Source of the DNA: a virus
Strand: one strand, 5' to 3'
Length of the DNA: 6,291 nucleotides
IMG/VR virus record: IMGVR_UViG_3300009365_002071
In this document: positions 120-6,291 of the stretch, piece after piece
Numbering within the stretch: the first letter of the stretch is position 1
How the letters are laid out: the number at the start of each line of letters is the position of its first letter
Made by a program: the position numbers and the translations under genes
The notes under the pieces: generated by a model
Seen by the model: only the letters and a program-made list of their open reading frames with translations
What the model was told of the DNA's origin: nothing
Database searches by the model: none

Positions 120-332
120 GCAACCCCGCCGACCTCCCCCCGCGCCCTGTCCAACCCGGTTTTGGTTGTAATGATGGCGCTCGCTTGGTGGTTCAGGGCT
201 ACCAGAACCGGGAAACCTGCTTCACCTCGACCATTTGTTTTTTTGTGTTAGGATTCGCACAGACATAAAAAAACCCCCGTGATTTGCTTGGCGGCTTCAC
301 GGGGGTTTATGGCCCCGCCGGAGGGGGCTTGC
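86..332 (+). other. Major intergenic region; candidate replication origin / packaging signal / rep promoter
   Basis: It is one of only two non-coding stretches longer than 100 nt (the other is 2120..2237) and lies directly upstream of rep, as in other inoviruses. It contains GACCTCC twice (86-92, 131-137), possible long-range pairing CCCGGTT (156-162) with AACCGGG (207-213), a T-rich tract at 238-249, and a 12-bp-stem hairpin at 271-308. A weak sigma70-like candidate is TTGTGT (243-248), 17 nt, TAAAAA (266-271). Confidence 0.4.
264..308 (-). terminator. GC-rich hairpin with T7 tract on the minus strand (intrinsic terminator oriented for minus-strand transcripts; alternatively an ori/packaging hairpin)
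   Basis: The stem AAACCCCCGTGA (271-282) pairs perfectly with TCACGGGGGTTT (297-308), with a 14-nt loop. On the minus strand the stem is followed by TTTTTTT (complement of A264-A273 region). On the plus strand only TTTAT follows. Confidence 0.5.
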
Positions 333-1676
333 ATGGATCATACTCGCAAACGCATTGCACCTCAATTACCGCACCCGCAGGCCGCGCAGCGGCCCCTTGG
401 TAATACTGCTAAATCCTCTTCACCCCCCAGCGAACAAAAAAAGCGGCGTGAGCGTTTCGAGGCTCTGATGCAGGCCCGCGTCTGGCTGTCGAAGTCTCCC
501 AAGTGTAGGCGGGCTGACGTCAAGTATCCCGGCGATGCGTACCGTACCCATGATTGCAAGTGGACGATGCTCGGCCAGCAGGTCTACTGCCTTCGGGACC
601 CTGCCAACAAGGCCGCTCACTTTGGTTCCCTGGTAACGTGCGGGTCCGTCTGGGCTTGTCCGGTTTGCGCCTCCAAGATTCAGCAGCGCCGCCGGGGCGA
701 GCTTCAGCAGCTTACAAGCTGGGTGGAGTCCACCGACCGCCATGCAATTATGGTCACTTTCACGTTTCCCCATACCCGGATTCAGACATTGCGCGAGTTG
801 CTTCTGAGGCAGCGCGAGGCGTTCGGCAAGCTCCGCGCCGGTAAAGCGTGGGTTCGCATCAAGGCCGCAATGGGTTATCAGGCTATGGTGCGCTCACTTG
901 AGATTACCCATGGTTCATCCGGCTGGCATCCTCACACACATGAACTGTGGGTTTTGAGCGGTCAGCCAAGCATGGCCGATCGTGCCCGCCTTCTGGGCGA
1001 AATCGTTGATCGCTGGGAAAAGTGCTGCATCTCTTCCGGTCTGCTCGATCCTTCCGACGAGGTTAAGGTCCGCGCCTTCCGTGCCCACTCCGTCGATATC
1101 CGCTGGCAGGTGTCCTGCGCTGAGTACCTGGCGAAACAGGACGCGGCTCGTGCTTGGGGCGTCGAGTCCGAGTTGGCGCTGTCGAGGACGAAAAATGGCC
1201 GAGCTTCCGGCGTTCACCCCCATGAGTTTCTTGTCCGTCAGGCAGACGGTGATTCGTCCAGGTATCTCGAATTTGTCGATGCGACCAAGGAAGTCAGAGC
1301 TCGTCAGCTTTATTGGTCGCAGGGCCTTAAAGCTGCTTGCGGTGTTGTTGACCTGTCTGACGAGGAACTGGCCGACGATTCCCAGCAGCTTGCCGAGTAT
1401 TTCTCCGGTTTAACTGCTGACCAGTGGCGGGCAGTTCGCGGTAATGGCGTTCGTGCTCATTTGCTTGAGTATGTCGCGGCTGGTGATATGACTGGCTTTT
1501 TGTCTCTCCTGCATTCTGTGGGTGCCCCGCTGTTCCTTGATCAGCGTCAACAGCTCGCGCTCGGTAATTCCCTGGACGGCTGCGAACTTAATCAGCCTTT
1601 TCACTTCGTCCGTTTGCATCATCCTTGCCCCGCTCCTTTGCAATTTTCATCAGGTTTTCCACCGCCTGCGTCATAG
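333..1676 (+). CDS. Rolling-circle replication initiator, HUH endonuclease (pC194/Rep_1 - Phage_CRI-like)
   Basis: Long ORF. The start is chosen at ATG 333 because GGAGG (320-324) lies 8 nt upstream. The GTG 279 and ATG 309 alternatives lie inside or next to the hairpin and have no SD. Motifs: Cys cluster CGSVWACPVC (639-665), HUH-type WHPHTHELW (HPHTH at 927-941), and catalytic-Tyr motif AEYLAKQ (Tyr codon 1125-1127, Y-x-x-K). Confidence 0.9.
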   Translation: MDHTRKRIAPQLPHPQAAQRPLGNTAKSSSPPSEQKKRRERFEALMQARVWLSKSPKCRRADVKYPGDAYRTHDCKWTMLGQQVYCLRDPANKAAHFGSLVTCGSVWACPVCASKIQQRRRGELQQLTSWVESTDRHAIMVTFTFPHTRIQTLRELLLRQREAFGKLRAGKAWVRIKAAMGYQAMVRSLEITHGSSGWHPHTHELWVLSGQPSMADRARLLGEIVDRWEKCCISSGLLDPSDEVKVRAFRAHSVDIRWQVSCAEYLAKQDAARAWGVESELALSRTKNGRASGVHPHEFLVRQADGDSSRYLEFVDATKEVRARQLYWSQGLKAACGVVDLSDEELADDSQQLAEYFSGLTADQWRAVRGNGVRAHLLEYVAAGDMTGFLSLLHSVGAPLFLDQRQQLALGNSLDGCELNQPFHFVRLHHPCPAPLQFSSGFPPPAS

Positions 1677-1758
1677 TCCAACCGCGTTCAGCGCATAGCA
1701 ATTTAAGCTCTTTATGCACCTGTTTTTCCAGGCTGATCGTCTTAGGTCTATCGGTCAT
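1588..1758 (-). CDS. Ribbon-helix-helix (CopG/Arc/MetJ-like) DNA-binding protein, putative phage repressor/regulator, 56 aa
   Basis: The minus-strand ORF is trimmed to the internal ATG at 1758, which is preceded by AAGGGG 9 nt upstream. The sequence MTDRPKTISLEKQVHKELKLLCAERGWTMTQAVENLMKIAKERG fits a beta-strand / helix / turn / helix RHH pattern. It is the only credible minus-strand gene. Confidence 0.7.
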   Translation of the reverse strand: MTDRPKTISLEKQVHKELKLLCAERGWTMTQAVENLMKIAKERGKDDANGRSEKAD

Positions 1759-1846
1759 TTCATTTGACCCCTTGTGTTTTTGTGTTTTTGCGTCTAACGT
1801 TGTTCCCGTTGGATACATTTACATTATTTCACAAGGGTGAATTGAA
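1759..1846. promoter_or_regulatory. Divergent control region between the RHH gene and the SSB/structural operon
   Basis: An 88-nt AT/T-rich spacer between divergent start codons. It holds the tandem TGTGTTTT TGTGTTTTT (1774-1789), tandem TACATT TACATT (1814-1825), and a candidate -35 TTGTTC (1800-1805) with -10-like CATTAT/ATTATT (1822-1828). It is flanked by mirrored SD/start-codon arms. Confidence 0.5.
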
Positions 1847-2119
1847 ATGACTACGACTTTCCGGATGGAAATCGACGGCCAGAAAAAAACCGGCACTCGC
1901 ATTGATCGCAAAACCAACGCTCAGATCCAATATTTTATTTACGTCGCCTATGTCGTCCTTCCCGGCTACAAACATCCTCAGGCGGTAGAGCATTATAGCG
2001 AAACGCCTTTACAGCCGGGCTCTCTGTTTGATGTTCCAGTTATTGCCGAGGTCAAAGACGGCAAGGTTGCGTTCTCGGCTGACTATCGAGCCGCCAAGCA
2101 AGTCACCAAGGCCGCGTAA
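1847..2119 (+). CDS. ssDNA-binding protein (gene V analogue, Pf3-SSB-like), 90 aa
   Basis: Its position is immediately after rep. SD AAGGG (1833-1837) precedes the start. The size is typical. The C-terminal pattern PLQPGSLFDVPVIAEVKDGKVAFSADYRAAK resembles, from memory, the Pf3 SSB pattern ...IPAGSYQVPYRINVNNGRPELAFDFKAMK. Confidence 0.72.
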   Translation: MTTTFRMEIDGQKKTGTRIDRKTNAQIQYFIYVAYVVLPGYKHPQAVEHYSETPLQPGSLFDVPVIAEVKDGKVAFSADYRAAKQVTKAA

Positions 2120-2128
2120 CCGTGAGCG

Positions 2129-2180
2129 CGCGCCGGTCTGATGTTTCCTTTCGAGCACTCCCCGGCGCGTTTGCTTTTTC
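2129..2180 (+). terminator. Weak terminator/attenuator-like hairpin after the SSB gene
   Basis: CGCGCCGG (2129-2136) pairs with CCGGCGCG (2162-2169) and is followed by TTTGCTTTTT (2170-2180). The 25-nt loop makes it a poor canonical terminator. Confidence 0.3.
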
Positions 2181-2237
2181 CGTGCCTGTCTTTTGGGTGT
2201 CGTATTTCATCACGTCTTTCTTTGTTGGTGCCTGATC

Positions 2238-2510
2238 ATGGCGGGTTGCTTCGAAGTTGTTCAAGGTTATCTACAGCATGTCGGCGAATTCTCCGACACT
2301 TGCACCGGTTTCGTTGTTGTAACCGCCGACGATTATCGTAACGCCCCCACCTTTGAAGCGCTTTTCACTGTTCCCGAATCCGAGGCTATCAGCTCTGCCT
2401 TTATCGCCGGTCTGAGCCTCCCCCTTATCCTTTGGCTTTCTGCCTGGGGATTCGGTGTGGTGGTCAACTTCATAAACCACCGCTCCGATCAACCAACCTA
2501 TGAGGAGTAA
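2238..2510 (+). CDS. Hypothetical membrane protein (90 aa) in the gVII/gIX position; possible minor virion or morphogenesis protein
   Basis: ORF 2193..2510 is trimmed to ATG 2238, with a weak GGTG at 2227-2230. There is a C-terminal hydrophobic segment, ISSAFIAGLSLPLILWLSAWGFGVVVNFI. Its stop TAA (2508-2510) sits inside the spacer between the coat-gene SD and ATG, so the two are tightly linked. Confidence 0.55.
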   Translation: MAGCFEVVQGYLQHVGEFSDTCTGFVVVTADDYRNAPTFEALFTVPESEAISSAFIAGLSLPLILWLSAWGFGVVVNFINHRSDQPTYEE

Positions 2511-2515
2511 TACCG

Positions 2516-2650
2516 ATGGACTTCACCGCCGTTACGTCCGCTGTGGACGCCACCACTATCGTTGCAGCCATTGCAGCGATTGCCGCAATCAAAATCCTTC
2601 CCGGCGTTGCCAAATGGGGCTTTGGTAAGGTTATCGGCTGGTTCCGTTAA
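2516..2650 (+). CDS. Major coat protein, 44 aa, leaderless Pf3-type (gene VIII analogue)
   Basis: Not in the supplied ORF track because it is too short. ATG 2516 is preceded by GAGGAG (2502-2507) 8 nt upstream. The translation is MDFTAVTSAVDATTIVAAIAAIAAIKILPGVAKWGFGKVIGWFR: an acidic N-terminus (D2, D11), an Ala/Ile-rich helix core and a basic C-terminus (K26, K33, K38, R44). A strong terminator follows, as after gene VIII in Ff phages. Confidence 0.85.
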   Translation: MDFTAVTSAVDATTIVAAIAAIAAIKILPGVAKWGFGKVIGWFR

Positions 2651-2658
2651 TCGTGGCT

Positions 2659-2688
2659 GGCCCGTCTTTCGACGGGCCTTTCTTTTTC
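2659..2688 (+). terminator. Rho-independent terminator downstream of the major coat gene
   Basis: GGCCCGTC (2659-2666), loop TTTC, GACGGGCC (2671-2678), then TTTCTTTTTC (2679-2688). Confidence 0.85.
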
Positions 2689-2704
2689 TGACGTGGCCTT
2701 TCTG

Positions 2705-2788
2705 ATGATCTATCTGATCCTTTCTTTCGTCTGGGGCATCGTCTGCGCTAAGGCGATTCAGTCCGGTTTTGATTCAACGGTGAACTGA
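2705..2788 (+). CDS. 27-aa hydrophobic micro-ORF translationally coupled to the pIII-like gene (possible minor coat protein or coupling leader)
   Basis: The ORF from ATG 2705 to TGA 2786-2788 encodes MIYLILSFVWGIVCAKAIQSGFDSTVN. Its stop overlaps the pIII ATG (TGATG). The size and hydrophobicity resemble Ff pVII/pIX (32-33 aa). There is no clear SD. Confidence 0.35.
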   Translation: MIYLILSFVWGIVCAKAIQSGFDSTVN

Positions 2789-4017
2789 TGCGCAAAATTC
2801 TGTTACTCGTCGTGTCTTTGGCTTTGTTGCCATCCCAGGCATACGCGGCGTTTTATACGTTTACCTCATACCAGTTCGGCGGCTCTTATTCATCTGCTCT
2901 TGATGCTTGTATCGCTGTTTCTAACTACAATCTCGGCGGCAATATTAAGCACGGCGTTGCTACTGTTTCCACATATTCACTCGGTGGTTGGCGGTGCAAT
3001 TTCACGCGTGAAGATGGTTCGACGTGGACCAGTAACACAACCTACCGCGTCACTAGACTTGGCGATTCATGTCCGCCGGACACTGTTTATAATCCGGCAC
3101 AGGGTTCGTGTGATCCAGAGCCGGTCGATTGTTCTGAGTCTGCGGGAACTACAACCTATCAATTTTTCCTCGCAGCGACGCGCAACAGTGTAGACGAACC
3201 ATTTCCAGACCCCTCCACCTATCAGGTCGAGGTTCCGCCCTCTATCTGCTCCAGCGAGTGTCGGTATACCGATTCGTCAACGGGGGACACCGTTACTTGT
3301 GGCCGTCTGACTGGCTCTGATGGCCTCGGCCTGTACTGTTACTCCCCCTTTACCGGCACAGGCGAGCAGTGCCAAGCCTCCGACGAACCCCACACTGGCC
3401 CCGGTGACCTCGGTGGCCCTACTCCTGCCGATCCAGCCGACCCTGAGGACCCCACCGACCCTGCCGTTACTTGCGGCATGACTCCTGGCTATGTCTGGAC
3501 CGGTACAACCTGTGCGCCCGTTTTTGAGCCTGAACCAGACGATGGCGGCTCTGATGGTGGTGATGGTGATGGCGGTACTGATCCCGGCACTGGCGGCGGC
3601 ACAGGCGGAACTGGTGGCGGCACTGGCGGCACTGATCCCGGTACTGGTGATGGCGGTACTGATCCCGGCACTGGCGGTGGCACTGGTGGCTCTGGCGGTA
3701 GCGACGGGGATGGCGGTGATGACTCGACATGCACAGGTGAAGAGTGTGCTCAGGACTGGTATCAGCCCGGCGAACGCACCATGGAAACCGTTATGCAGGG
3801 ATTTACCGACCGTGTTCAGTCGTCCGCCGTTGTCCAGGCTACCGACCGGTTCTTCACGATGAATGTCGGCGGCTCCTGCCCTGTCTGGTCCGTCAATGCC
3901 TGGGTGTTCACCATCGTCATTGACCAGCACTGTTCCAATAATATTCCGTGGGCTGCTATTCGTGCCGTGCTTCTCGCTTGCGCCGGCTTCGTCGCTTTCC
4001 GCTGGGCTTTCCTTTGA
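2788..4017 (+). CDS. pIII-like adsorption / minor coat protein, 409 aa
   Basis: Sec signal peptide MRKILLLVVSLALLPSQAYA|A. The ectodomain has 16 Cys. There is a Pro/Asp-rich segment and then a Gly-rich linker. The conserved-looking C-terminal module (GGSCPVWSVNAWVFTIVIDQHCSNNIPW) ends in the hydrophobic anchor AAIRAVLLACAGFVAFRWAFL. The gene sits between the coat and pVI/pI genes. Confidence 0.85.
   Translation: MRKILLLVVSLALLPSQAYAAFYTFTSYQFGGSYSSALDACIAVSNYNLGGNIKHGVATVSTYSLGGWRCNFTREDGSTWTSNTTYRVTRLGDSCPPDTVYNPAQGSCDPEPVDCSESAGTTTYQFFLAATRNSVDEPFPDPSTYQVEVPPSICSSECRYTDSSTGDTVTCGRLTGSDGLGLYCYSPFTGTGEQCQASDEPHTGPGDLGGPTPADPADPEDPTDPAVTCGMTPGYVWTGTTCAPVFEPEPDDGGSDGGDGDGGTDPGTGGGTGGTGGGTGGTDPGTGDGGTDPGTGGGTGGSGGSDGDGGDDSTCTGEECAQDWYQPGERTMETVMQGFTDRVQSSAVVQATDRFFTMNVGGSCPVWSVNAWVFTIVIDQHCSNNIPWAAIRAVLLACAGFVAFRWAFL
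3538..3723 (+). repeat. In-frame Gly/Thr/Asp low-complexity repeat region (linker) within the pIII-like gene
   Basis: It encodes DDGGSDGGDGDGGTDPGTGGGTGGTGGGTGGTDPGTGDGGTDPGTGGGTGGSGGSDGDGGDD. A 29-nt exact duplication GATGGCGGTACTGATCCCGGCACTGGCGG occurs at 3568-3596 and 3649-3677 (period 81 nt, or 27 codons). ACTGATCCCGG(C/T)ACTGG occurs three times (3577, 3631, 3658). Confidence 0.9.
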
Positions 4018-4026
4018 GGTGTCGCT

Positions 4027-4320
4027 ATGGACTTCTTTACTCTTGAGTTTTGGAAGGGCCTTTGGGATGACTTCGTTGAATTCATCACCGATCTTCCCGC
4101 TGCTGTCCTTGAAAGCATCCTCGGCGTTATCGCCGGGCTGATCGAGTCGCTTACGCCTCCTGATTTTATGAATCAGTCGCTCGGTGATGTACTTGGCCCG
4201 ACCATGCCTTATATCGGCTCCTTTCTTGCCCAATCCGGTTTTGCCGAGGCGTTCGCACTTCTAGGTGCTGGCCTCGCTTTCCGTCTGTTGCGTAAGCTGT
4301 TCACCCTGGGTCAGTGGTAA
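4027..4320 (+). CDS. pVI-like minor coat protein (DUF2523-type small membrane protein), 97 aa
   Basis: SD GAGGTG (4016-4021) lies 5 nt before ATG 4027. There are two or three hydrophobic helices (AAVLESILGVIAGLI; AEAFALLGAGLAFRLL). It occupies the canonical position between the pIII and Zot/pI genes. Its stop overlaps the Zot start (TAATG). Confidence 0.75.
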   Translation: MDFFTLEFWKGLWDDFVEFITDLPAAVLESILGVIAGLIESLTPPDFMNQSLGDVLGPTMPYIGSFLAQSGFAEAFALLGAGLAFRLLRKLFTLGQW

Positions 4321-5564
4321 TGATCGCTTTTCATGAGGGTTTGCCCGGTGCTGGTAAGTCGTATGAGGCGTGTTGTTACCACATCCTGCCCGCGCTCAAG
4401 GCTGGCCGGCACGTTGTCACCAACATTCGCGGCATTAACTGCGAAAAGTTTGCTGAGCTGCTCGACGAACCTGTCGAACTCGTTGAAATGCTGGTTACCC
4501 AGATCGAACCAGCAGAGCAGGAGGACGACGAGAAGGAAATCACCCGCGTCAAAGACGAATTTGCTACCAGGACGCCTGATGGTGCCCTGATCGTCTGGGA
4601 CGAGATTCAGGACTATTATCCGAGCGGCAATTACAAGCTGCCTCACTCGCATCAGAAATTTTGGACCGAACACCGGCACCGTGGTCTTGATATCGTCATC
4701 ATGGGTCAGGACCGTGACGACGTTCATAAGATCATCCGATCCCGCATTGAGGCGTTAACCTACTTCCTCAAGCTGAAAGCTGTCGGCCAGCCCAACAAGT
4801 ACAAGTGGGAACACTACGAACGCCAGCGTAAGGGCAAGTTTGAAAAGATCGGCTCCGGTGTCCGATCTTATGACAGCCAGTATTTCGGCCTCTACTTGAG
4901 CCACCGCAAGGAGGGCATCAAGTCCAGCGTGTACACAACCGGCCGCACCAACGTTTTGAAGAACACCAAGCTCCTTACTCTCGGCGTTCCTGTCGCCTTC
5001 GCTGCTGCTATTTACGGCGTATCCCACCTGTGGTCCTTCTTCCATCCTGAACCAGCACCAACGCCCCCAAAGGTCGGCGTCTCCTATTCTCGCGCTCCTG
5101 CTGCGGCTTCATCACCTCCACCAGCCGCAGTACCTTCTTCACCTGGTCAACACGCTCGCACATCCGAACCCGAGCCTGAGCCGATCGACTATTTCGACCG
5201 CATGGCCACTGCCTATTCTGTCCGGCTTTCAGGTTTGATTTCCTCCGAGCAGGAGGGCAAAGAACTGCTCGGTTATGTCGAGATGCTGGATTCCAGCTAT
5301 CACGTTAAAGAGCGTTTCACGGTCCAGGATATCCAGGCTTTGGGCTGGGCTGTCTCGCATGAGGTTTACGGTCTACTGATTGTCAAAGAAGGCGTCAGGC
5401 ATGTCGCTCGCGCTTGGCCTCTCGACCTATTCGGGCGCGTCGATCAACGAACGGCAAACAGCCTGGATACCAGCCAAAAGCCTTTAGGCTTGGCTGGTTT
5501 CCAGGCTGAAACCCGGTCCTATGTCACCGTCATCAATGACTCGTCACCACCAAGCGCGCCCTAG
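4320..5564 (+). CDS. Zot-family assembly ATPase (gene I / pI analogue), 414 aa
   Basis: The N-terminus MIAFHEGLPGAGKSYEA carries Walker A (GLPGAGKS). Walker B-like ALIVWDEIQ is present, as is the conserved HRHRGLDIVIMGQD block. A single TM segment (LLTLGVPVAFAAAIYGVSHLWSFF) is followed by a Pro-rich linker and a C-terminal periplasmic domain. The start could alternatively be GTG 4314. Confidence 0.95.
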   Translation: MIAFHEGLPGAGKSYEACCYHILPALKAGRHVVTNIRGINCEKFAELLDEPVELVEMLVTQIEPAEQEDDEKEITRVKDEFATRTPDGALIVWDEIQDYYPSGNYKLPHSHQKFWTEHRHRGLDIVIMGQDRDDVHKIIRSRIEALTYFLKLKAVGQPNKYKWEHYERQRKGKFEKIGSGVRSYDSQYFGLYLSHRKEGIKSSVYTTGRTNVLKNTKLLTLGVPVAFAAAIYGVSHLWSFFHPEPAPTPPKVGVSYSRAPAAASSPPPAAVPSSPGQHARTSEPEPEPIDYFDRMATAYSVRLSGLISSEQEGKELLGYVEMLDSSYHVKERFTVQDIQALGWAVSHEVYGLLIVKEGVRHVARAWPLDLFGRVDQRTANSLDTSQKPLGLAGFQAETRSYVTVINDSSPPSAP

Positions 5565-5582
5565 TCACGACCGTTCGTCGGT

Positions 5583-5637
5583 AATTTTGGTAACGTTACG
5601 ATAATCCGTTGTTTAATTTCGGTAACGTTACTATAAT
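5583..5637 (+). promoter_or_regulatory. Two tandem 23-bp operator-like repeats, each with the perfect palindrome GTAACGTTAC abutting a -10 hexamer
   Basis: R1 is AATTTTGGTAACGTTACGATAAT (5583-5605). R2 is AATTTCGGTAACGTTACTATAAT (5615-5637). They are 21/23 identical and spaced 32 bp centre to centre. The palindromes lie at 5590-5599 and 5622-5631. Confidence 0.6.
5609..5637 (+). promoter_or_regulatory. Sigma70-type promoter for the orf96-orf101 cassette
   Basis: TTGTTT (5609-5614), a 17-nt spacer, then the consensus TATAAT (5632-5637). The operator palindrome fills the spacer. SD GGAGG (5653-5657) and ATG 5665 lie downstream. Confidence 0.55.
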
Positions 5638-5664
5638 TAAGTCACCAACAACGGAGGCGCGGAA

Positions 5665-5955
5665 ATGTCATTCAACAAAGCACGATTCAACCTTTTTGTG
5701 GACGAAGTCATCACCCGACTTGTTGATTTATCCAACGCTGTTAATCGTGGCGATACATTCACCCGAAACGGAGAATCGCAGTATTTACAGGGTTTGATCT
5801 GGGGTGCTCATCTCGGCGGCATGATTACATCTGACCAATGGGGATCGCTCGGCAATTTGATCTGCGCGATTGCATACCAGGAAGACGGGGCACCGCTGGA
5901 ATCAAGCCTTATTGGCCCGATTGTTGAGTCCGTACTTCCGGAGCGCCTGCAATGA
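5665..5955 (+). CDS. Hypothetical soluble protein, 96 aa (orf96)
   Basis: GGAGG lies 7 nt upstream of the ATG. The stop overlaps the next start (ATGA at 5952-5955). There is no TM segment and I recognise no motif. GC is lower than in the core genes. Confidence 0.65.
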   Translation: MSFNKARFNLFVDEVITRLVDLSNAVNRGDTFTRNGESQYLQGLIWGAHLGGMITSDQWGSLGNLICAIAYQEDGAPLESSLIGPIVESVLPERLQ

Positions 5956-6257
5956 AAGATCAAGCCGACAAGCAAACTTCAGAATTGCCGCTTAACGGTA
6001 ACGTACCCAAAAAACGCGGTCGCCCGAAAACTGGCAAGGCGTTATCCAATGCCGAGAAGCAGCGCCGCTACCGCCAGCGAAAGTCCCAGGGTGATCAGGC
6101 CGTCGCCTATCGTGAGGAAGCCAAGCGCCTCTATGCCCAGCTTGTAACGGCTAACCGTGAGGTTGATCTTTGCCGCTATGAGCGTTCCGAAGCGTTCCGC
6201 GTTGTTGAGATATACCGACAGCGCCTGGAGCAAGCTGGATTATCGACGGATTATTAG
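5952..6257 (+). CDS. Small basic DNA-binding-like protein, 101 aa: AT-hook-like KKRGRPKTGK, basic stretch AEKQRRYRQRK, and a C-terminal helical/coiled-coil-like region (orf101)
   Basis: GGAG (5940-5943) lies 8 nt before ATG 5952, translationally coupled to orf96. RGRP is the AT-hook core. An Arg/Lys-rich segment follows, then the amphipathic EEAKRLYAQLVTANREVDLCRYERSEAFRVVEIYRQRLEQ. The gene runs across the circular junction. Confidence 0.72.
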   Translation: MKDQADKQTSELPLNGNVPKKRGRPKTGKALSNAEKQRRYRQRKSQGDQAVAYREEAKRLYAQLVTANREVDLCRYERSEAFRVVEIYRQRLEQAGLSTDY

Positions 6258-6291
6258 GACCTCCGTCGCCTGGACGCGATCACGGTCAGTC
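6173..6291. repeat. Terminal direct repeat, copy 2 (circular-contig overlap)
   Basis: Identical to 1-119 (offset 6172). Confidence 0.95.

Follow-up and report, generated by a model that had tools for sequence, protein, structure and literature searches.

The window analysed here is the whole 6,291-nt stretch of IMG/VR virus record IMGVR_UViG_3300009365_002071, a circular inovirus genome with a unit of 6,172 nt and an exact 119-nt terminal redundancy (1-119 = 6173-6291). This study concerns a 56-amino acid open reading frame (ORF) on its minus strand, predicted to encode a ribbon-helix-helix (RHH) protein, that lies between rep, the gene for the replication initiator, and the gene for the single-stranded DNA-binding protein (ssDBP). 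The arrangement of rep, antisense RHH gene, and ssDBP gene is a conserved module of a clade and is not peculiar to the window genome, and an array of contiguous 8-bp repeats lies in the spacer between the RHH and ssDBP genes. I lean, on balance, toward the view that the protein is a dimeric DNA-binding regulator and that its dimers sit on these repeats, where they would regulate their own gene and limit the operon of ssDBP and structural genes, and perhaps rep as well. The coordinates of the features are collected in Table 1.

The minus-strand ORF is a real gene, because it has a codon periodicity of its own, homologues in 52 protein clusters (found by word-indexed searches), and a predicted RHH fold. 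The periodicity is seen in comparison with the relative L006 (IMGVR_UViG_3300018412_000008), whose Rep is 91% identical to that of the window: within 1677-1755, which encodes the RHH protein alone, 14 of 26 RHH codons differ at position 3 and 4 of 26 at position 2 (p = 0.008). The longest form of the ORF (1588..1818, ending in the TAA at 1588) would run to 76 amino acids from its first ATG. However, the start conserved among relatives is the ATG at 1758, and the 56-amino acid form is supported because relatives have no in-frame ATG upstream of it. The longer form was rejected for this reason and because its extra codons are simply the repeat array in translation. In L002 and L006 as well, the sequence that precedes the start in frame is translated repeat array, with no start codon.

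That the product is an RHH protein, as the original prediction had proposed, is supported by Pfam, a family profile, AlphaFold2, and Foldseek. The single sequence matches Pfam weakly (RHH_10, E 0.002, and RHH_4). Across the 52 family members, nearly all matches are to RHH families (RHH_10 in 22, 56B_RHH in 17, Antitox_RHH in 12), with further matches to MatP_C, Omega_Repress, ParG, RepB-RCR_reg (two members), and, weakly, FitA-like_RHH. The profile of the family, run against the Protein Data Bank (PDB), finds ParG best (E 0.016) and then MatP, with 56B/SvtR also matched. An AlphaFold2 monomer built on the 52-sequence alignment has a mean predicted local distance difference test (pLDDT) score of 79, with block means of 91-94 over residues 11-40. 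In the model, residues 1-11 are uncoiled, helices span residues 12-25 and 29-50, and the C-terminal tail is of low confidence and predicted to be disordered (the block 51-56 has a mean pLDDT of 46, and residues 53-56 lie below 50). The strand-forming segment would be at about residues 5-10 (KTISL). The PDB matches listed by Foldseek are overwhelmingly RHH or RHH-like strand-helix-helix structures, with probabilities up to 1.0, the highest-ranking ones all being RHH proteins, and they include the C-domain of MatP, CdbA, SvtR, Arc, CopG, CopA-SO, AmrZ, and NikR. The sequence also has the hallmarks of the superfamily, an N-terminal K-T-I-S-L strand in which polar and hydrophobic residues alternate and a G26-W27-T28 turn, of the G-x-S/T/N type, at the start of helix 2, and across the 52 sequences T28 is invariant and T30 and Q31 nearly so. 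By its predicted fold, the protein is a member of the RHH (MetJ/Arc/CopG) superfamily.

Between the window and L006, the RHH proteins are 71% identical, as compared to 91-92% for Rep and ssDBP. Divergence of the heteroimmunity type was considered and rejected: neither the repeats nor the residues of the strand have changed, and the differences lie on helix surfaces and in the tail. The divergence looks like relaxed constraint, not a switch of specificity.

The 52 clusters come nearly all from contigs of 5-7.6 kb. An exhaustive search of 1.84 billion representatives with a hidden Markov model (HMM) yielded no more than 16 with E<=1e-10 and, at the looser E<=1e-3, 129; the RHH family is thus a small one. 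Most of the 129 distant representatives, and also cluster P0052, which adjoins a resolvase, were excluded as generic small RHH proteins that do not belong to the module. Among 50,697 phage records the protein has a sole match, Pseudomonas phage PMBT54, and the whole window found no match by megablast against the same records. A tblastn search of plasmids with the RHH protein gave no match, the family profile, scanned against GTDB genomes, led to no confirmed locus and thus to no host or prophage context, and a scan with Rfam gave nothing relevant, i.e., no known antisense RNA family at the locus.

The order rep, antisense RHH gene, ssDBP gene is found in every recovered locus that holds neighbour genes (L001-L008, L010-L018, L020, and L023-L028) and in PMBT54; L019 is cut before rep and shows the RHH-ssDBP pair only. 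One of these loci, L020, is in a 19-kb contig (ERZ26695388 ctg149640) on which three inovirus-like units, with three Zot genes, follow one another within 1-16145; these could represent prophages, tandem or mixed, or a concatemer produced by assembly. The clade is a small group of non-integrating inoviruses that includes PMBT54, whose Rep is 41% identical to that of the window. The layout is not unprecedented, being already visible in the published annotation of that phage. Its ORF2 (OR047306, WJZ46451, 'MatP_C domain-containing protein') is 49% identical to the window RHH protein over 41 amino acids (BLASTP E 2e-10), and both proteins match the family profile with E values of about 1e-23 to 1e-28; judged by these alignments, the window protein is a member of the ORF2 family. 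The authors who described PMBT54 remarked that ORF2 runs antisense within the replication module, reported matches to MatP/SeqA, called its function elusive, and proposed a role in replication (PMC10534721). As in the window, ORF2 is antisense between a Rep_1 rep and an ssDBP gene and has an 8-bp array in its spacer. Unlike the window, PMBT54 has an overlap of 32 nt rather than 89, four CGTGTTWT repeats about 130 nt from the RHH start in a longer spacer, and, elsewhere in its genome, a secretin and a second RHH protein ('omega repressor', ORF13).

The spacer between the RHH and ssDBP genes, 88 bp in the window, contains the candidate operator array. Three to four direct copies of a repeat with the consensus YGTGTTNT are followed by inverted copies, and a contiguous array of this kind is present in the spacers of 17 of 17 loci. 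An exact pair of GTGTT at 8-bp spacing occurs in 15 of the 17, a number reached by no more than 2 of 2000 shuffles, and the remaining two are one base off. The repeats read CGTGTTTT CGTGTTAT CGTGTTTT CGTGTTGA in PMBT54 and GGTGTTAT CGTGTTGT CGTGTTAA in L008. Throughout the genome, matches to the repeat pattern are clustered in this spacer, with few scattered elsewhere. In the four lineages measured (window, L007, L008, and PMBT54), the array lies upstream of the ssDBP start and ends about 30-50 nt short of it, and between the array and the RHH start there are anywhere from 15 to about 130 nt. The inverted copies in the window are degenerate, but they pair with the direct repeats in predicted folds, and the spacer is thus palindromic.

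Protein and repeats appear to vary together. The lineages with K-T in the strand segment (the window, L002/L006/L025, L003, L007, L013, L024, and L028) have T-initial repeats (TGTGTTTT), whereas those with K/R-N (PMBT54, L018, L019, L023, L008, L015, L020, and L027) have mostly C-initial repeats (CGTGTTWT). From what is known of the RHH fold, I take the T/N residue, aligned with CopG, to be one that should face DNA. The association between the strand residue (T or N) and the first base of the repeat (T or C) is suggestive support for a link between protein and repeats.

A second operator may lie upstream of rep. In the window, a sequence resembling the repeat overlaps an extended -10-like TGtTAGGAT, which is followed by CAGACATAAAAAAA and then by a hairpin with the loop GCTTGGCGGC. 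Seven lineages share this layout: a common motif, TTTTTGTG(T/A)TAnnnT, that includes the -10, then CAGACAAAAAAA, and then a hairpin with the conserved loop GCTTGGCGGC. The motif is absent from the PMBT54 clade. I regard the repeat-like stretch as a candidate for the rep promoter, perhaps with a second operator in it, and the hairpin as a candidate double-strand origin or nick site. A link of the spacer to another suggested binding site, at 5583-5637, was rejected, as the two have only TAACGTT in common, a heptamer not conserved in L002 or L006.

These observations suggest how the module might work. The RHH gene would be transcribed leftward from the spacer that it shares with the ssDBP gene, the two genes diverging as originally described. 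Several RHH dimers would bind side by side to the contiguous repeats, a mode of binding with a precedent in omega/ParB of pSM19035, an RHH protein whose 7-bp heptads adjoin one another and lie in both orientations (PMC9499535). Once bound, they would regulate their own gene and restrain the rightward ssDBP-coat-assembly operon, and the motif at the putative extended -10 of rep would possibly put rep under the same control. Together, these effects would balance replication against virion output in an infection that is chronic and episomal.

There are several points to be set against this proposal. A scan for sigma-70 consensus sequences found no promoter in the spacer (1759-1846). The motif upstream of rep reads TGTGTTA in both groups of proteins, K-T and K/R-N alike, and may simply be a promoter element, while the association of T/N with T/C may stem from a single phylogenetic split. 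The repeats could be bound instead by Rep or by the small basic proteins encoded within 5665-6257, or could serve as a hairpin in single-stranded DNA (the spacer has a z score of -7.6 in the window subclade). Finally, convergent transcription is universal in the family and so may matter after all.

The role in single-stranded DNA is the main rival for the spacer. According to it, the palindromic region 1745-1860 with its repeats would be primarily a single-stranded DNA element that works in the packaged plus strand, as the packaging signal or as the origin of the minus strand, and the RHH protein would act on a different site. Such elements have a model in the Ff phages, where long imperfect hairpins serve as packaging signal and minus-strand origin, and the spacer does fold as one long hairpin. 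Its outer stem is a 17-bp inverted repeat, and changes on both sides are seen in 5 of its 17 pairs, in five relatives (four lineages), a level reached by 5 of 500 shuffles. However, a strong hairpin is confined to the window subclade (z scores of about -7 to -8.5; other clades have -0.6 to -3.7), whereas the 8-bp repeats are universal. Furthermore, a hairpin does not require tandem direct repeats, and other hairpins (I8, I10, and I11) are available in the large non-coding region upstream of rep. I therefore think it quite unlikely that this is what the spacer is for. The arms of the inverted repeat make the translation-initiation regions of the RHH and ssDBP genes nearly identical, with parallel changes specific to lineages. 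Through this, the hairpin could sequester the ssDBP ribosome-binding site in rep mRNA that reads through, or could give both mRNAs a common translational operator.

The overlap between rep and the RHH gene is a separate matter. Its length, 89 nt, is exactly as originally described, with the RHH ORF ending at 1588 and rep ending in a TAG at 1676. Amongst loci with the same gene order, the relation of the rep stop to the RHH stop ranges from a gap of 50 nt (L028) through gaps of 43 nt (L008, L015), 41 nt (L027), 23 nt (L024), and 6 nt (L020) to overlaps of 32 nt (PMBT54, L023), 38 nt (L018), 89 nt (window, L002, L006, L025), 95 nt (L013), 107 nt (L007), and 119 nt (L003). Rep homologues can be aligned up to about ...GDW..V..LL.S.G, a point some 50 residues before the C-terminus of the window Rep. 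Beyond it, they continue for about 5 to about 55 residues that diverge in both sequence and length.

In the overlap, position 3 of RHH codons is paired with position 2 of rep codons, and the substitutions between the window and L006 follow the RHH frame. At rep position 2 there are substitutions in 8 of 28 codons in the overlap vs. 5 of 96 in rep-only sequence (p = 0.0016), and at rep position 3 (wobble) in 2 of 28 vs. 42 of 96 (p = 0.0002). Constraint is seen in the RHH frame only, and beyond RHH coding nothing is conserved. Selection therefore reads the RHH frame, with the Rep tail as its passenger. The comparisons support the view that the last 50 or so residues of Rep are a dispensable, free-riding extension that varies from lineage to lineage, in agreement with the earlier description of the tail as a non-domain product of overprinting. 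The overlap itself looks incidental, the outcome of a drift that, in some lineages, carried the rep stop codon into the 3' part of the RHH gene. It makes a clean, small example of a gene end drifting into a convergent neighbour, for when Rep runs on into the RHH gene, it takes whatever the coding of the opposite strand dictates.

The model taken from the original prediction makes this overlap the physical basis of a switch, in which convergent RHH transcription into rep, by collision, antisense RNA, or both, would be the primary means of coupling replication to virion production. Dominance of the RHH frame and an overlap that varies down to none (and that gives way in L008 to a gap containing a 9-bp hairpin) argue against the overlap as a working part of such a switch. 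Moreover, pure interference needs no DNA-binding fold. On the other hand, convergent orientation is kept in every relative, and terminators are scarce. A terminator scan of the minus strand found none just downstream of the RHH stop, the nearest being about 380 nt into rep, and the plus strand has only weak terminator-like sites, namely a pair within the tail of rep and the hairpin at the RHH start codon (1753-1769). Transcription of the RHH gene should thus continue into rep in antisense, and that of rep should traverse the RHH gene. I consider interference unlikely as the primary switch.

Amongst known systems, the closest parallels for how the RHH protein would work, if it binds the repeats as I propose, are CopG and omega, which are small RHH regulators in replicons of the rolling-circle type. 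CopG of pMV158 (RepB-RCR_reg) is likewise a small RHH protein (about 45-60 amino acids) in a replicon with an HUH initiator, and Foldseek aligns it with a template modelling (TM) score of about 0.63 on the query. The gene for CopG precedes rep and is transcribed together with it, from a promoter at which CopG binds a pseudo-palindrome. In contrast, the window gene is downstream of rep, on the opposite strand and convergent with it, and divergent from the ssDBP operon. The integrating phages CTXphi and Pf4 have the helix-turn-helix repressors RstR and Pf4r, respectively, whose genes diverge from rep and lie upstream of it. These repressors resemble the RHH protein as small regulators encoded opposite to the main phage operons, but differ from it in fold and in position, the latter as had been pointed out before, and no integrase was found in the 6.2 kb of the window genome. 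Omega (ParB) of pSM19035 is similar in that its dimer binds contiguous short repeats, direct and inverted (PMC9499535). The window array, for which the RHH protein is the candidate binder, likewise has direct copies and then inverted ones, but with a period of 8 rather than 7 bp.

The likeness to omega raises the thought that the protein might be a centromere-binding protein akin to ParG and omega, or a factor akin to MatP and SeqA, that organises episomal replicative-form DNA and does not act on transcription. ParG and MatP are, after all, the best matches of the family profile in the PDB, some family members match Omega_Repress and ParG in Pfam, and a role in replication has been proposed for the PMBT54 protein (PMC10534721). 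Nevertheless, I find this very improbable. Neither the ORF list nor Pfam reveals a ParA-type ATPase to serve as partner in the 6.2-kb genome, and only about four residues precede the strand-forming segment, too few for the long, flexible N-terminal tail that ParG and omega use. As for MatP, the matches are confined to its RHH core (residues ~90-135 only), and its N-terminal four-helix bundle and its coiled coil are absent from the 56-amino acid protein.

Still more remote is the idea that the protein is the RHH antitoxin of a type II pair, which I rejected. A 77-amino acid ORF downstream on the minus strand (1410-1643), with a similar one in relatives, would be the toxin, and some family members do have weak matches to Antitox_RHH and FitA-like_RHH. 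However, the frame of that ORF, whose codon position 1 lies opposite the wobble position of rep, runs without a stop over 55-250 codons of rep in every relative, and rep wobble positions have changed at 44% in this region, so the ORF is under no constraint of its own. I judge it to be a by-product of rep coding and not a gene.

The rest of the genome is summarized in Table 1. The RHH gene is, as the original prediction stated, the lone gene on the minus strand, the other homology-supported genes (ssDBP, capsid, Zot) all being on the plus strand. Gene calls in the metagenomic contigs L004 and L005, whose RHH, Rep, and ssDBP proteins and gene order are the same as those of the window, agree that the 56-amino acid ORF is the sole exception to a one-strand layout.

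Table 1. Features of the window. Positions are those of the 6,291-nt stretch; the last column gives the description and, where available, the basis of the assignment.
Feature	Position	Strand	Description and basis
Repeat-like sequence	233..254	+	TTTGTTTT TTTGTGTT, overlapping TG-extended -10-like TGtTAGGAT (246-254)
Hairpin upstream of rep	271..308	+	Perfect 12-bp stem (271-282/297-308); loop GCTTGGCGGC conserved in relatives
rep	279/333-1676	+	HUH rolling-circle initiator, WHPHTHELW motif; Pfam Rep_1, E 1.7e-11
Convergent overlap, 89 nt	1588..1676		RHH residues 28-56 and stop vs. last 29 rep codons
RHH gene	1588..1758	-	56 amino acids and stop; ORF list, homologues, fold, codon periodicity
Spacer hairpin	1745..1860	+	Whole spacer as a single imperfect hairpin of ~100 nt; RNA -43.2 kcal/mol, z -7.6; DNA z -3.9
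17-bp inverted repeat, left arm	1754..1770		Covers RHH start codon and spacer up to Shine-Dalgarno sequence
Shine-Dalgarno-like sequence	1768..1773	-	AAGGGG, 9 nt upstream of ATG 1758, abutting first 8-bp repeat; read from sequence
8-bp repeats	1772-1795		Three contiguous copies, TTGTGTTT TTGTGTTT TTGCGTCT, candidate operator array; Tandem Repeats Finder (TRF), period 8
Inverted copies	1808..1834		Degenerate; reverse complement TTGTGAAA TAATGTAA ATGTATCC; read from sequence
Candidate RHH promoter	1831-1823	-	TG-extended -10-like TGAAATAAT; suggested by reading of the sequence
17-bp inverted repeat, right arm	1835..1851		Covers ssDBP Shine-Dalgarno sequence and start codon
ssDBP gene	1847-2119	+	First gene of rightward structural/assembly operon; Pfam ssDBP, E 1e-6
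Major capsid protein gene	2516-2650	+	Inovirus major capsid protein
Terminator-like hairpin	2659-2678	+	After coat gene, end of first unit of operon; terminator scan
pIII-like protein gene	2788-4017	+	Large Gly/Thr-rich protein, 409 amino acids
Zot gene	4314-5564	+	Zot-type assembly ATPase
Small ORFs		+	A few, including those for small basic proteins at 5665-6257

Several other observations concern the remainder of the genome. Imperfect tandem repeats at 3543-3722 encode a Gly/Thr/Asp-rich linker of the 409-amino acid pIII-like protein. Two 24-nt direct repeats (TAATTTYGGTAACGTTACKATAAT), at 5582-5605 and 5614-5637, stand just upstream of the ORF at 5665-5955, and each contains the palindrome GTAACGTTAC and a TATAAT-like end. 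The block around them (5570-5656) is 96.5% identical to L006 although its flanks cannot be aligned between the two genomes, and it is probably a promoter/operator cassette of the operon of small ORFs. At 5952-6257 is encoded a basic protein of 101 amino acids (KKRGRPKTGKALSNAEKQRRYRQRK...) that matches several PHROGs of unknown function (E 5.7e-14). Situated upstream of rep, it is a second candidate regulator, and the counterpart position in PMBT54 is occupied by the omega-like RHH protein (ORF13). Compared with L006, the window is a mosaic: the replication module (1-2137) is 85% identical and 5952-6291 is 92% identical, while the structural/assembly module (2138-5569) is essentially unalignable except for 3535-3725 (70% identity).

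The several readings of the locus could also be combined, and I offer the combination as a doubtful possibility. The RHH protein and its array would form an omega-like switch of multiple dimers at the junction of rep and ssDBP. Two divergent promoters would have the palindrome as their double-stranded operator, and the same palindrome would form a hairpin, in the single-stranded genome or in rep mRNA that reads through, that sequesters the ssDBP ribosome-binding site. Convergent transcription would add a second layer. Such a combination would amount to a compact circuit, not described before, that decides between replication and virion export.

The interest of the locus lies in the conserved module of repeats and palindrome and in the tractability of PMBT54, not in the overlap itself. 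Outside of Ff, CTXphi, and Pf, it is poorly understood how episomal filamentous phages keep replication and export at a level that the host tolerates. The module is simple enough to test, consisting of a 56-amino acid regulator, a conserved repeat array, and two or three promoters, and there is a cultured representative in PMBT54, which grows on Pseudomonas carnis/lactis.

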